64,000 bases of DNA from Candidatus Atabeyarchaeum deiterrae (GTDB lineage Archaea; Asgardarchaeota; Atabeyarchaeia; Atabeyarchaeales; Atabeyarchaeaceae): the NCBI GenBank assembly GCA_037310415.1, contig CP147780.1, positions 256,001 to 320,000 on the forward strand, read 5' to 3'. Of the stretch, positions 10,760-25,926 are shown in pieces. The translations under genes and the position numbers were made by a program. The first letter of the stretch is position 1. Every line of letters begins with the position of its first letter. A model generated the notes under the pieces. The model was not told where the DNA came from. It searched no databases and saw nothing but the letters and a program-made list of their open reading frames with translations.

Positions 10760-10856
10760 GGGCCCGTGGCCTAGTCAGGATAGGGCGTCAGCCCTCTATG
10801 AACAATAATGCAGGGAAAGCTGATGGTCGTGGGTTCAAATCCCACCGGGCCCGCCA
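10760..10856 (+). tRNA. tRNA-Arg(TCT) with 19-nt intron at 37/38 (10799-10817); encoded CCA
   Basis: Acceptor GGGCCCG/CGGGCCC, D-loop GGA (A20 Arg identity), anticodon stem TCAGC/GCTGA, anticodon TCT at 10795-10797, T-loop TTCAAAT, G73-CCA. Confidence 0.9.
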
Positions 10857-13573: not shown

Positions 13574-13903
13574 TTAATTCTCTTCGATCTTGAATAGTGG
13601 GGAGGTGATTCTTTCGCTTTTGCACTTTGGGCACCTACCTGGGACTTTGGGTTTCTCCAGTTTCTTGAATGTGAAGTTGCATACTCTGCAAGTCGGAGGG
13701 ATCATGATAACATGTTCCTTACCTCTGGACTCTCCATAGACAGTCTTCGCCACGTGATGCAAGTCCTCGTAGACTGATTTCAAGTCTGTCCGCTCACCGA
13801 GTAGTGCTGCTATGTCTTCTGCACTAACAGGGTTCCTGCACTCTCTCAGCAACTGTTTGATTCGTTCTCTTCTACTTGGAAGCACCATGGAAGCCCCAAC
13901 CAT
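13574..13903 (-). CDS. HTH + Zn-ribbon transcriptional regulator (COG3357-like)
   Basis: RRERI--LL, YEDL-HVAKT, CRVC ... CPKCKSERI. Confidence 0.85.
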   Translation of the reverse strand: MVGASMVLPSRRERIKQLLRECRNPVSAEDIAALLGERTDLKSVYEDLHHVAKTVYGESRGKEHVIMIPPTCRVCNFTFKKLEKPKVPGRCPKCKSERITSPLFKIEEN

Positions 13904-13935
13904 TAAATACCCCGCGGAAGAATAGCAATATGCGT

Positions 13936-14940
13936 CTATTTGAAGTGCTCGTAACCCTTAGGCTCTATTTCTCTGTTCTCTTCCTTTGTCTCAAGAATTA
14001 TCTTACGTTCTTTTGTTACTTGCCCTATTCTGAAGAGGGTTCCTCCCGCCTTGCTGATTGCTTTCTCAGCCTCACTCCATAAGTCACGTTTAACCGTAAC
14101 TACCAACTCATATTCCTCTCCCCCATAGAGCGCCAAGTCTATGGGATTAAGATTGTTCATTCCCGCAAACTTGACCACTTCCGCTGGTATTGGAATATCT
14201 TCAACCTCGAATCCCACTTTGCTTGCTCTTGCCAGCTCATATATTGACCAAGCCAAACCATCTGAGCTGTCTATAGAAGATGAGAGAACCCTTGAAGAAG
14301 CCAGTGCGACACCTTCACTGACCTTGGCTCTAGGCTCGTAGACCGCTTTGATCAAGCGCTCTCTTATTGGCGGCTCAGATTTCATTCCCTGAAGCAGAAG
14401 CTTCAAGCCAGCGCCAGTTAACCCGAACGGACCAGTAACAGCCAACACATCCTCAACCGCAGCGCCACTTCTCTTGACTAGCCTTGACTCGTCGGTCAAC
14501 CCGAATGCCATCCCCGAAACGATCAGGTCCGAAGCCTCGCCCGTATCGCCGCCCATCATACAGGCATTATATTGCCTGCACTCGCTAACAATCCCCTTCA
14601 TTAAGTTGAGAGCCTCTTCCACATCGAAGTCGCGAGGCAATCCCAAAGATGCCAAAAAGCCTGTCGGTTTTACTCCCTTGGCTGCGAGGTCACTGAAGTT
14701 CATCGTGACGACCTTTCTTCCTATCTGTGTGTTTGACATGCCTGGAGGAACATCCGTTGTACCAACCAACATGTCGGCTTTAAGAACAAGCGCTAACCCA
14801 TTACCCAGACTGAAACCAGCAGCATCGTCACCAATGGGCAGGGCTTCCCTCGGACAGGGACTCAGAAGTTTAAGAATCCTCTCGACTACTTCCCGCTCTC
14901 CCACGTCACTCAAAGACAGACGGCGCAAATCGATATTCAA
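13936..14940 (-). CDS. thiL: Thiamine-phosphate kinase
   Basis: IGDDAA, N-SDLAAKG, GGDT, IDSSDGL, GGEEYEL. Confidence 0.95.
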   Translation of the reverse strand: MNIDLRRLSLSDVGEREVVERILKLLSPCPREALPIGDDAAGFSLGNGLALVLKADMLVGTTDVPPGMSNTQIGRKVVTMNFSDLAAKGVKPTGFLASLGLPRDFDVEEALNLMKGIVSECRQYNACMMGGDTGEASDLIVSGMAFGLTDESRLVKRSGAAVEDVLAVTGPFGLTGAGLKLLLQGMKSEPPIRERLIKAVYEPRAKVSEGVALASSRVLSSSIDSSDGLAWSIYELARASKVGFEVEDIPIPAEVVKFAGMNNLNPIDLALYGGEEYELVVTVKRDLWSEAEKAISKAGGTLFRIGQVTKERKIILETKEENREIEPKGYEHFK

Positions 14941-15153
14941 TTCCCTCTACACCACATTAAGACATTGATCTGCTCATACTATATATTAGTAGATAAGAGA
15001 ATTGACGCAGAGCACCATGACTATTCACACTCACGCGCAAGCTAGAAATAGCCAAGACTGACCAAAAAAGGAGGACTATGACCGGTGCAAAAGATTAGAA
15101 GCTTGTTGATTCAGACTTACTTGAGCCGGAGAACAAATGTGGGGGGAGAAGGG

Positions 15154-15168
15154 TAAAAGAGATATATA
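15154..15168 (+). promoter_or_regulatory. Putative BRE/TATA of tRNA-Leu
   Basis: TAAAAGAGATATATA about 50 nt upstream of the tRNA. Confidence 0.45.
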
Positions 15169-15216
15169 CGTGAACGATCATCAGGAAAAACCAAGAAAAA
15201 CAGGATCTGAAGACGT

Positions 15217-15392
15217 GCGGAGGTAGCCAAACAGCGAAGAGCGCTGGGCAACGCCTGGTCAAAGGCGCAGGAATGAGGGTCCTGTTCCGTAGGGATTATG
15301 GTCCGCTCAACTAGCGGATAATCCCGAATCGAGGGTTCAAAACCCGAGGCAAAAACTCTACCTCGATGGTGAAACTCCCTTCCTCCGCACCA
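15217..15392 (+). tRNA. tRNA-Leu(GAG) with three introns (15231-15252, 15297-15328, 15342-15375); encoded CCA
   Basis: Removing the three inserts gives an 88-nt archaeal-type tRNA-Leu: GCGGAGG TA GCCAA|GCCTGGTCAAAGGC G CAGGA AT GAG GG TCCTG TTCCGTAGGGAT|TC GAGGG TTCAAA|T CCCTT CCTCCGC A CCA; each insert forms a BHB-like motif. Confidence 0.9.
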
Positions 15393-15640
15393 AGACTTCT
15401 CGAGAACAGGTCTGCTATACTCTTCTATGATTGCCTGAGAACACTTGTTCACGGTCTTCTCGGTCAATCGCGATAATTAGCTATTCTATTCTTTCAGATA
15501 AAGCAAGATTAATGACACTGAATAACTGTTATCTGCTGAAGATGATCATTCCATTAGAAAACTACGTTCTCGCAAATACTCCATGCGAGTTGGATACACG
15601 CAGGGAACTAGTCCAACAGATCTGAGGTGCGGGTCTCCCA

Positions 15641-17338
15641 ATGGCTTTCGAACTCAAATGTAAGGATGTCGCCGGAAGAATAGGAAAGCTCACCACAAAG
15701 ACTGGTGTGATTGAGACACCTGTCTTGCTCCCTGTTGTCAACCCTTTTGCTTCTCAAGGGATCCCCCCATCGGTTCTAGAGGGTGAATTCAAATGTGAAG
15801 CGATAATTACTAACGCATATTTGCTGTGGAAGCAGGCCCGACAAGAATCTATTCAGTTAGGCCTTCACCGACTGCTCAATTTCTCGAGAAGCATCATGAC
15901 CGATTCAGGAGCATACCAATTGCTAACGTATGGTACCGTGGAAGTCACACCGGACGAGATAATAGCTTTTGAAGAGGATATCAAGAGCGATATAGCGGTC
16001 ATCCTCGATGTGCCAACAGGGGGTCATGAGAAACGTGGGAGAGCTACTTATACAGTCGAAGAAACACTGAAACGTGCCCACGCCTGGGAAACAACAAAAA
16101 GAGAAAGTGATGTGCTTTGGGTTGGACCAGTTCAAGGGGGAACTTACTCGGATCTGGTTGAGCGTTCGGCCAAGGAAATGGGAAAAATCGGTTTTGACAT
16201 CTTTGCAATTGGTAGTCCGACGCAAATTATGGAGAATTACAGATTCGATAGACTTGTTGACTTGATAGCAACTGCTAAACTAAACCTTCCCATAGAGAAA
16301 CCCACCCACTTATTCGGCGCCGGTCATCCAGCAATGTTTTCTCTTGCGGTAGCAATGGGATGCGACATTTTTGACTCAGCTTCGTATGTCCTTTACGCCA
16401 AGAATGATCGATATATGACCAACTTTGGAACGCGAAGGCTCAACGAATTGAGGGAAAAAGTCTGCTTTTGTCCTGCATGTGAGAAATTCACACTGCATGA
16501 AATGGTAAGTCTGTCTAAGGAAGAACGGTTTAATGTTGTCTCGAAGCATAATCTTTACGTCTGCTTGAACGAGATCCGAGTAATTAAACAGTCGATTTAT
16601 GAGGGGAGACTCTGGGAACTTGTAGAGACCAGAGCCAGAACCCACCCTCAACTTCTGGAGGCACTGAAGAGGCTAAAGAAATACCGTGAATACCTCGAAA
16701 AGTATAGCCCCGTTGTCAAGACACGCGCGGTCTTCTACAGTGGCCCAGAGTCACTTACAAGACCTGAAGTAACAAGACACCTCACGAAACTCAGGTCGAT
16801 GCCAGTTCCGTCCCCTGCAGATCTTCTCATAATTCTTCCTGAGCCAGGCAAGAGACCATTTAGCAAGTCAAAAGACCAGAGGAAGTATAGAAAGATCATA
16901 CGAAGCGTCATCAATGATAGAAACGAGTTGAGAAGAGTTCACATATGCACTGTTTCAAAGTTATTCGGACTGATCCCAATGGAACTCGACGAGACCTACC
17001 CACTGGCTCAACATGAGGTTCCAAAAACGCCAGACCTAGAATCGAGGAAACTGATACTCCACACGATCAAATCCTACATCAGAAACCATAGTTACAGGGC
17101 ATTAGTGATCCATTCAGATCACAAGATGACTGGAAAAAACGCCTTAGCGAAGATACTAGACCAATGCAAGAGACTTGGATTGTACGCCGCTGCAACGCCA
17201 AAAGAATCTATGAAACCAATAAGCAGGCAGGCGCTGCGGGAATTCGCGGAAGCGGTATCAGAGGCTCATAAAGCGATAGCGGGCTCATCCCAGCAAAGCT
17301 CTATTCGGATCAAAACAGAGGAGTGGGAGACGAAGTGA
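15641..17338 (+). CDS. tgtA: Archaeosine tRNA-guanine(15) transglycosylase
   Basis: IETP-LLPV, MTDSGAYQ, GPVQGG, HLFGAGHP, D-FDSASY, C-CP-C Zn site, HNL. Confidence 0.95.
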   Translation: MAFELKCKDVAGRIGKLTTKTGVIETPVLLPVVNPFASQGIPPSVLEGEFKCEAIITNAYLLWKQARQESIQLGLHRLLNFSRSIMTDSGAYQLLTYGTVEVTPDEIIAFEEDIKSDIAVILDVPTGGHEKRGRATYTVEETLKRAHAWETTKRESDVLWVGPVQGGTYSDLVERSAKEMGKIGFDIFAIGSPTQIMENYRFDRLVDLIATAKLNLPIEKPTHLFGAGHPAMFSLAVAMGCDIFDSASYVLYAKNDRYMTNFGTRRLNELREKVCFCPACEKFTLHEMVSLSKEERFNVVSKHNLYVCLNEIRVIKQSIYEGRLWELVETRARTHPQLLEALKRLKKYREYLEKYSPVVKTRAVFYSGPESLTRPEVTRHLTKLRSMPVPSPADLLIILPEPGKRPFSKSKDQRKYRKIIRSVINDRNELRRVHICTVSKLFGLIPMELDETYPLAQHEVPKTPDLESRKLILHTIKSYIRNHSYRALVIHSDHKMTGKNALAKILDQCKRLGLYAAATPKESMKPISRQALREFAEAVSEAHKAIAGSSQQSSIRIKTEEWETK

Positions 17339-18003
17339 AACACTTGAAACTAGACTTGCACGTTCACACTTGGTACTCCAAGGATGGCATCCACTCGCCT
17401 GAACTAGTTTTGAGATCGGCTGCTTCGAAGGGATTACATGTTGTTGCGATAACAGACCACAATACTGTCCGTGGGTCAAAAGAAGCAAGAAAGTGTAAAA
17501 CTGGCGTATTGGTAATACCTGGGATCGAGGTAGATACAAAAGAGGGTCATATCATAGGACTCGGGATTGAAGATGTCATAAAGCCATGGCTCTCCGCGGC
17601 AGAAACTGTTGATTTAATCAGAGACGCTGGGGGAACTGTTGTAATCCCCCACCCATTTGACTATATTAGACGAGGAATTGGGTCAATGGCGAAGATCCTG
17701 AAGGCAGACGCCATTGAAGTGATGAACTCCAAGACAAACACACCTCTCTCAAATACCTTCGCCAAAAGGCTGGCAAAAAAAATCAATAGCCCAATTACCG
17801 CGGGAAGCGATGCCCACCTAGCTGAGGATGTCGGAAATGCTTACATGATCATTCAGCCAAGAGAGAACCCCAACGTTAACATGATACTCAAGATGCTGAG
17901 AACGCAAAAAAGCAACACTGTGGAAATTGTAGGGAGAATAACGCCACTGAGTAGCAGGGTCAAAAAGATAGCATTACAAGCAGTAAAGAAAAGCGTTCAC
18001 TAG
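17323..18003 (+). CDS. PHP-family metal-dependent phosphoesterase
   Basis: DLHVHT-YS-DG, AITDHN, PHPFD, AGSDAH. Confidence 0.9.
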   Translation: MGDEVKHLKLDLHVHTWYSKDGIHSPELVLRSAASKGLHVVAITDHNTVRGSKEARKCKTGVLVIPGIEVDTKEGHIIGLGIEDVIKPWLSAAETVDLIRDAGGTVVIPHPFDYIRRGIGSMAKILKADAIEVMNSKTNTPLSNTFAKRLAKKINSPITAGSDAHLAEDVGNAYMIIQPRENPNVNMILKMLRTQKSNTVEIVGRITPLSSRVKKIALQAVKKSVH

Positions 18004-25791: not shown

Positions 25792-25926
25792 AGCCCCGTG
25801 GTCTAGCGATCCGAAGTCTGAAGAGGACTTGGGCTGGAAGCCAATGATGGCGGGCTTTGGACCCGTTGACGGGAGTTCGAATTGTCCGACGAATTTGTGG
25901 AGACGAAATTCTCCCCGGGGCTACCA
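25792..25926 (+). tRNA. tRNA-Gln(TTG) with two introns (25809-25839 at 18/19; 25882-25909 at 59/60); encoded CCA
   Basis: Spliced 76-nt product AGCCCCG TG GTCTAGCG|GCCAATGAT G GCGGG CT TTG GA CCCGT TGAC GGGAG TTCGAA|T CTCCC CGGGGCT A CCA; A1-U72 typical of archaeal tRNA-Gln; BHB helices CTAG/CTGG and TTCG/CGAA. Confidence 0.92.

Follow-up and report, generated by a model that had tools for sequence, protein, structure and literature searches.

Introns have been reported in 92–95% of the tRNA genes of the Asgard lineages Atabeyarchaeia and Freyarchaeia, several of them in over half of the genes, and many of these introns are non-canonical (Valentin-Alvarado et al. 2024; PMC11291895). A motif-free census of tRNA introns in 90 Asgard genomes is also available as a preprint (10.64898/2026.10.13.758758). 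The locus analyzed here belongs to the complete genome of Atabeyarchaeia-2 (Candidatus Atabeyarchaeum deiterrae). The contig that holds it is a single sequence of 2,756,679 bp (46.6% GC), and by the window we mean the whole 64,000-nt stretch of DNA that was analyzed, which corresponds to bases 256001–320000 of this contig. Row 5 of the table for this genome (SRVP_Atabeyarchaeota_2_curated.FINAL) in Supplementary Data 4 of Valentin-Alvarado et al. (2024; Nat Commun 15:6384, PMC11291895) lists a Leu GAG gene at 271217–271392, which is window 15217–15392, and tRNAscan-SE and R2DT each count three introns in it; the introns begin at 271231/271279/271342 and end at 271252/271320/271375, and the Infernal score is 66.7. 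Coordinates in this table coincide with those of the tRNAs found here (e.g., 243848–243938, 246125–246215, and 266760–266856). A gene with three introns and the same ends was, in other words, already published in 2024, and it is typical of its genome rather than exceptional. What we add is a better-supported middle intron, boundaries that are backed by the exact absence of intron 3 from a relative, and an unlisted ortholog with four introns.

The original prediction, which was made from the sequence alone, had called this gene cryptic and had expected standard tRNA finders to miss it. The published call, made by tRNAscan-SE in archaeal mode with 66.7 bits and three introns, contradicts the first of these statements. 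The second holds for some programs: ARAGORN made no call on the unspliced locus, even with introns allowed, and the Rfam tRNA model did not match it at the gathering score or at an E value of 1 or less in a search of the whole genome, but tRNAscan-SE found the gene. Over the whole genome, ARAGORN with introns allowed returned 20 tRNAs and the Rfam tRNA model returned 16–22; these were often misnamed and were not used to describe the tRNA complement. A second "Leu(gag)" that ARAGORN placed at 792623–792753 is Met(CAT) in the published table and was rejected.

Structure of the Gene and Its Predicted Spliced Product

Removal of 15231–15252, 15297–15328, and 15342–15375 from the 176-nt locus at 15217–15392 on the plus strand leaves an RNA of 88 nt, and half of the gene (88 of 176 nt) is intron, as had been predicted. 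From the sequence comparisons described below, the locus is very probably a single-copy, functional tRNA-Leu(GAG) gene of Atabeyarchaeia-2 with three introns, located at 14/15, at about 46/47, and at 59/60. Its parts are as follows.

15217..15230, plus strand: exon 1, with the acceptor 5′ strand, U8, A9, and the D-stem 5′ strand, to A14
15231..15252, plus strand: intron 1, 22 nt, D-loop, 14/15, relaxed bulge-helix-bulge (BHB) motif
15253..15296, plus strand: exon 2, with the rest of the D-arm, the anticodon arm (GAG at 15275–15277), and the variable stem-loop
15297..15328, plus strand: intron 2, 32 nt, variable region, about 46/47, 1–2 nt 3′ of the variable stem, relaxed BHB
15329..15341, plus strand: exon 3, with the last bases of the variable region, the T-stem 5′ strand, and the T-loop to position 59
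15342..15375, plus strand: intron 3, 34 nt, T-loop, 59/60, strict hBHBh′ motif
15376..15392, plus strand: exon 4, with position 60, the T-stem and acceptor 3′ strands, A73, and CCA at 15390–15392

Running the spliced sequence through ARAGORN had been proposed as a check, and the program returns tRNA-Leu(gag) for the 88-mer. In the ARAGORN fold, the acceptor stem has 7 bp and the D-arm contains G18G19. The 5-bp anticodon stem (CAGGA/TCCTG) is perfect and closes a 7-nt loop, AUGAGGG (A32, U33, and GAG); the variable arm is long, comprising 14 nt and a stem of 3 bp; the T-arm is GTTCAAATC (T-stem GAGGG/CCCTT); and the discriminator is A73, followed by an encoded CCA. The spliced 88-mer thus shows the cloverleaf, the long variable arm, and the A73 of a class II tRNA-Leu, and the combination of long variable arm and A73 is obtained only if intron 2 is 15297–15328 and not with the tRNAscan-SE model of this intron. 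A32, which had been singled out as unusual, is present but is not peculiar to this locus: BLAST finds A32 in Leu(GAG) genes of other Asgard genomes, some having U32 or C32; Leu(GAG) genes with A32 from Bathyarchaeia and Hecatellales were retrieved using a pattern that itself contains A32.

We aligned the intron-less Leu(GAG) gene of a Hecatella genome (L018) to the locus by an intron-aware procedure in which long genomic inserts extend free of cost and no splicing motif is used. It yielded three inserts, with lengths of 22, 32, and 34 nt, that follow reference positions 14, 58, and 71, respectively. These are exactly the three introns, at non-canonical sites, of the original prediction. Exon 1 matches reference positions 1–14, exon 2 corresponds to positions 15–58 with 39 of 44 positions identical, and exon 3 is identical at 13 of 13. 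The alignment score at the locus is 113; the best score among about 1,100 other 230-nt tiles on both strands of the window is 26 (mean 3.4, standard deviation 7.6), and the best among 300 shuffles of the locus is 36. The match to tRNA-Leu(GAG) is therefore far above chance. Furthermore, the spliced 88-mer is colinear with nine intron-less Leu(GAG) homologs from Hecatellales and Bathyarchaeia and aligns to them without gaps, with 74–79 of 88 positions identical, in agreement with the ARAGORN call and with the 88-nt tRNA that had been predicted.

Splicing Motifs

The geometry of each intron was recomputed with a single cut rule: the 5′ exon pairs with the intron's 3′ end in a 4-bp central helix (H), a 3-nt bulge lies on either side of this helix, and the second base of each bulge is followed by the cut. 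In intron 3, the central helix TTCA/TGAA has four of four pairs, the bulges are AA↓A and AC↓T (arrows mark the cuts), the outer helix is the 5-bp T stem, and the inner helices are CC/GG plus CGAGG/CCTCG. This is the only intron with a strict hBHBh′ motif, which is kept in the relative Atabeyarchaeia-1 (TTCA/TGAG). The central helices of the other two introns have three of four pairs. That of intron 1 is AGCC/GGCA with A.A as the outermost pair, bulges AA↓A and AC↓G, and an inner hairpin CAGCG/CGCTG, and that of intron 2 is AGGG/CCCG with A.G as the outermost pair, bulges AT↓T and AA↓T, and a hairpin TCCGCT/AGCGGA. The bulges of introns 1 and 2 are rich in A and the inner hairpins are stable, but we found no outer helix, and so no strict hBHBh′ motif, either here or in the orthologs; both introns fit only the relaxed HBh′-type class. 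One strict and two relaxed motifs is also what had been read from the sequence initially.

Applying the same cut rule to the 59 published introns of the Atabeyarchaeia-2 genome, we obtained four of four central pairs in 43, three in 12, and two or fewer in 4. Of the 12 introns with three pairs, two have a purine-purine mismatch (G.G and A.A) at the end of the helix where introns 1 and 2 have theirs, and two have one at the opposite end, so that relaxed motifs of this genome do not end in such a pair as a rule. Control boundaries that were shifted by 4–12 nt had four pairs in 1.9% of cases and three pairs in 12%, at least three central pairs being present in 14%. Because of these control rates, the motif of intron 3 is informative, whereas the motifs of introns 1 and 2 are weak when taken alone; the census preprint (10.64898/2026.10.13.758758) also warns of chance occurrence in the relaxed class. 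The predicted boundaries of introns 1 and 2 are accordingly based mainly on the compact homologs and on the relatives. Nine orthologous introns share one layout, in which a hairpin that starts 1–6 nt past the 5′ site is followed by an unpaired 3′ tail carrying the H strand, and the hairpin sequences vary among the genomes.

Placement of the Middle Intron

The published tRNAscan-SE model and ours have the same boundaries for introns 1 and 3 (271231–271252 and 271342–271375), but in the published model the middle intron is 42 nt long and located at 37/38 (271279–271320, window 15279–15320). We find that this intron was probably miscalled and that 271297–271328 (window 15297–15328), the placement given by the original prediction, is better supported by the sequences compared here. 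If the published model were right, the gene would have a canonical intron at 37/38, which is the commonest intron site in archaea, and its product would be a 78-nt tRNA-Leu(GAG) that lacks the long variable arm and that ARAGORN also accepts as Leu(gag); the model is, moreover, the one that appears in Supplementary Data 4 of PMC11291895, where its Infernal score is 66.7. However, the boundaries 15279–15320 give only one of four central pairs, placing this intron among just 4 of the 59 published introns with two pairs or fewer. The segment 15279–15296, which is intronic in the published model, is 100% identical in three genomes and equals positions 38–46 of intron-less Leu(GAG) genes, and in Atabeyarchaeia-1 a separate, near-canonical 23-nt intron is present at 37/38 and is followed by the same GTCCTG...GGGAT exon. 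In the 78-nt product, an A.C mismatch interrupts the anticodon stem; this product is also 10 nt short in comparison with every compact homolog and has 64–73 identities to these homologs versus 74–79 for the 88-mer. The long variable arm that this product lacks is an identity element for archaeal LeuRS. Taking both sides together, we regard 15297–15328 as highly likely and 15279–15320 as very unlikely. Shifting intron 2 by one base (15298–15329) leaves the product unchanged but worsens the motif to one of four central pairs, and this variant was rejected.

Relatives and Intron History

The same gene is found at the syntenic place in two relatives from the same family, Atabeyarchaeia-1 (CP147779.1) and the LC30 MAG. 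The LC30 gene keeps introns 1 (22 nt) and 2 (32 nt) with several substitutions in each, and it is without intron 3, exactly to the base (TTCAAA is joined directly to TCCCT). The Atabeyarchaeia-1 gene has 30 nt at 14/15, 41 nt in the variable region, and 31 nt at 59/60, largely of other sequence, and a fourth intron of 23 nt at 37/38; at 14/15, the hairpin sequence differs in the inserts of Atabeyarchaeia-1 (30 nt) and LC30 (22 nt). Across the three genomes, the introns diverge in sequence and length and the exons are nearly identical. Apart from the extra 37/38 intron of Atabeyarchaeia-1, exons 1 and 2 are the same in all three (44 of 44 positions of exon 2 in LC30), and the exon differences are confined to the T-stem and one acceptor-proximal base. 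An encoded CCA is absent from the genes of both relatives. Because the exons are conserved, the inserts diverge, and intron 3 is exactly present or absent, the inserts are best understood as introns in a working gene.

Intron 3 is present in Atabeyarchaeia-2 and Atabeyarchaeia-1 and absent from LC30. Under any branching order, a single precise loss in LC30 accounts for this pattern more parsimoniously than two gains, provided that the copies in Atabeyarchaeia-2 and Atabeyarchaeia-1 are homologous, as their short shared ends suggest.

Two additional Atabeya-like Leu tRNA genes are located 3.8 kb apart on the minus strand of the metagenome contig L035 (Ga0315309_1000091), near 901 and 4687. Both have a D-loop insert that ends in CTGGGCGAA and that, within the ambiguity of the alignment, occupies the intron 1 site, and one of them has four inserts, after reference positions 12–14, 30, 50, and 58. 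The insert at reference position 58 is 32 nt long in LC30, 41 nt in Atabeyarchaeia-1, and 54 nt in the L035 gene L035b. Altogether, the five related Leu genes have inserts at about seven positions, and the series of loci is a compact natural set for the study of intron gain and loss and of the substrate range of Asgard EndA. Outside this group, several Bathyarchaeia contigs (L017, L020, L022, L026, and similar ones) carry a tRNA-Leu(GAG) with two T-arm inserts, one in the T-stem and one at 59/60. Thus, 59/60 is a recurrent insertion site in tRNA-Leu(GAG) across phyla.

Genomic Context and Codon Demand

The tRNA gene has the following surroundings.

13936..14940, minus strand: neighboring gene for an AIR-synthase-related protein
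15163..15170, plus strand: candidate TATA-like box of archaeal type, ATATATAC, some 50 nt ahead of the 5′ end of the mature tRNA
15641..17338, plus strand: gene for a TGT+DUF5591 protein, directly downstream of the tRNA gene

The TATA-like box belongs to a roughly 30-nt block, GGTAAAAGAGATATATACGTGAA, that is also conserved in LC30 and is flanked by a diverging spacer, and this block is plausible as a promoter. With the box about 50 nt upstream, the transcript would have a 5′ leader of about 25 nt to be removed by RNase P. The TGT+DUF5591 protein looks like an archaeosine tRNA-guanine transglycosylase, an enzyme that modifies G15. G15 adjoins intron 1, and the location of the TGT gene next to the tRNA gene may be a coincidence. 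A minus-strand ORF at 15117–15467 (116 aa) and an ORF at 15431–15625 (64 aa) had no Pfam match and were treated as mechanical. A search of sequencing runs for window 13900–17400 returned no RNA run, and 15100–15500 is covered by no contig of four metatranscriptome runs that come from the same studies, which says nothing about expression.

CUU and CUC account for 41% of the Leu codons in long ORFs, and in the published list of 43 tRNAs for Atabeyarchaeia-2, no further Leu tRNA carries GAG or AAG as its anticodon. Two of the commonest Leu codons thus have no other listed decoder, and the correct structure of the gene therefore matters for annotation and for the mapping of tRNA-seq data. The same demand speaks against a decaying tRNA pseudogene in which insertions have built up and from which a working tRNA is no longer processed. 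Such a pseudogene would be in keeping with the fact that half of the gene is insert and two of its three motifs are relaxed; however, the exons are near-invariant and the inserts diverge in three genomes, a compensating architecture is retained in all inserts, the upstream block is conserved, and most tRNA genes of this genome look alike. We consider a pseudogene extremely unlikely.

Splicing Machinery and a Proposed Pathway

Two EndA paralogs are encoded in the genome, at 215557–215811 on the minus strand and at 625628–625888 on the plus strand. The former, a 238-aa ORF, matches the catalytic alpha subunit of the Aeropyrum pernix heterotetramer (3p1z_B) with an e value of 1.9e-46 and retains the catalytic Tyr/His/Lys triad as well as a Lys that aligns with A. 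pernix Lys44. Lys44 is located in the loop that was reported to widen the substrate range. The latter (198 aa) aligns to the EndA of M. jannaschii, and in it Thr replaces the catalytic His. This pair fits the (alpha-beta)2 two-subunit type, an architecture that has been reported for most Asgard genomes. An RtcB gene is present as well.

In the pathway that we propose, the gene would be transcribed from the upstream TATA-like element, and the ends of the transcript would be trimmed by RNase P and RNase Z. The two-subunit, crenarchaeal-type EndA, made up of the catalytic and the His-less subunit, would cut after the second base of each 3-nt bulge, which we infer to be after 15230/15252, 15296/15328, and 15341/15375. 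RtcB would join the four exons (14, 44, 13, and 17 nt), and the product would be an 88-nt class II tRNA that could be charged by LeuRS and would read CUC and CUU. The minimum-energy structure computed for the precursor contains the acceptor, anticodon, and T stems and the H helix of intron 1, but it buries the 5′ site of intron 2 in an uninterrupted GGGATT/AATCCC helix instead of leaving it in a bulge. Cleavage there may therefore depend on a rearrangement of the RNA or on the earlier removal of another intron.

Gaps in the Published tRNA Lists

The ortholog in Atabeyarchaeia-1 (L056; CP147779.1, 259535–259744) contains four introns, which make up 125 of its 210 nt, and splices to an 85-nt RNA that ARAGORN calls Leu(gag). 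Supplementary Data 4 lists 40 tRNAs for that genome but not this one, and no Leu(GAG) is among them; the coordinates in the list match CP147779.1, as checked with Arg-TCT. With this gene missing from the table, Atabeyarchaeia-1 is left without a listed CUY decoder. The list for Atabeyarchaeia-2 has gaps as well: Asp(GTC), Cys(GCA), Ile(GAT), Thr(CGT), and Ser(CGA) are all missing from its 43 tRNAs. It is therefore probable that essential tRNAs are still hidden, presumably by the heavy intron load. The probably misplaced intron 2, the missing ortholog, and the missing tRNAs make it likely that heavy intron load corrupts or hides tRNA annotation even in curated complete genomes.

Two other tRNA genes of the window can be mentioned here. 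The published table gives the tRNA at 10760–10856 on the plus strand as Arg(TCT) and puts an intron at 10799–10817. Its spliced loop is CCTCTAA, with C33 where tRNAs normally have U; ARAGORN names it Glu(ctc) or Gln(ctg), depending on the settings, and the same exon sequence occurs in Atabeyarchaeia-1. The plus-strand locus at 25792–25926 is the published tRNA-Gln(TTG) at 281792–281926, for which a 59/60 intron was called and a second insert was given by R2DT; it was missed by both ARAGORN and the Rfam tRNA model.

Comparison with Known Systems

The locus is one of the multi-intron tRNA genes of Atabeyarchaeia and Freyarchaeia, with mostly non-canonical introns and with two EndA paralogs in its genome, and it cleanly illustrates how extreme the intron load of tRNA genes is in some Asgard archaea, as published in 2024. 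It differs from the published table (PMC11291895) in its middle intron, which is 271279–271320 there and 271297–271328 here. The original prediction had turned to Thermoproteales for a comparison, and likenesses do exist, but the apt comparison is with the gene's own lineage, in which 92–95% of tRNA genes bear introns. The multi-intron tRNA genes of Thermoproteales (Sugahara et al. 2008; Mol Biol Evol 25:2709, as cited by Valentin-Alvarado et al. 2024) likewise have up to three introns each, non-canonical sites that include 59/60, and a mixture of strict and relaxed BHB motifs, and they are served by a heteromeric endonuclease, as is predicted here; the catalytic subunit found here is closest to the A. 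pernix alpha subunit. The lineage of the present gene belongs to another phylum (Asgard archaea and not Thermoproteota), and its intron load is higher, at 92–95% of genes versus about 70% (Valentin-Alvarado et al. 2024). The introns probably accumulated independently in the two groups.

Split and tri-split tRNA genes, as found in Nanoarchaeum and Caldivirga, are another arrangement in which the pieces of a tRNA are joined at BHB-like motifs processed by EndA. Unlike these, the four exons of the tRNA-Leu(GAG) gene are contiguous, in order, and on one strand within 176 nt, and joining in trans is not needed.
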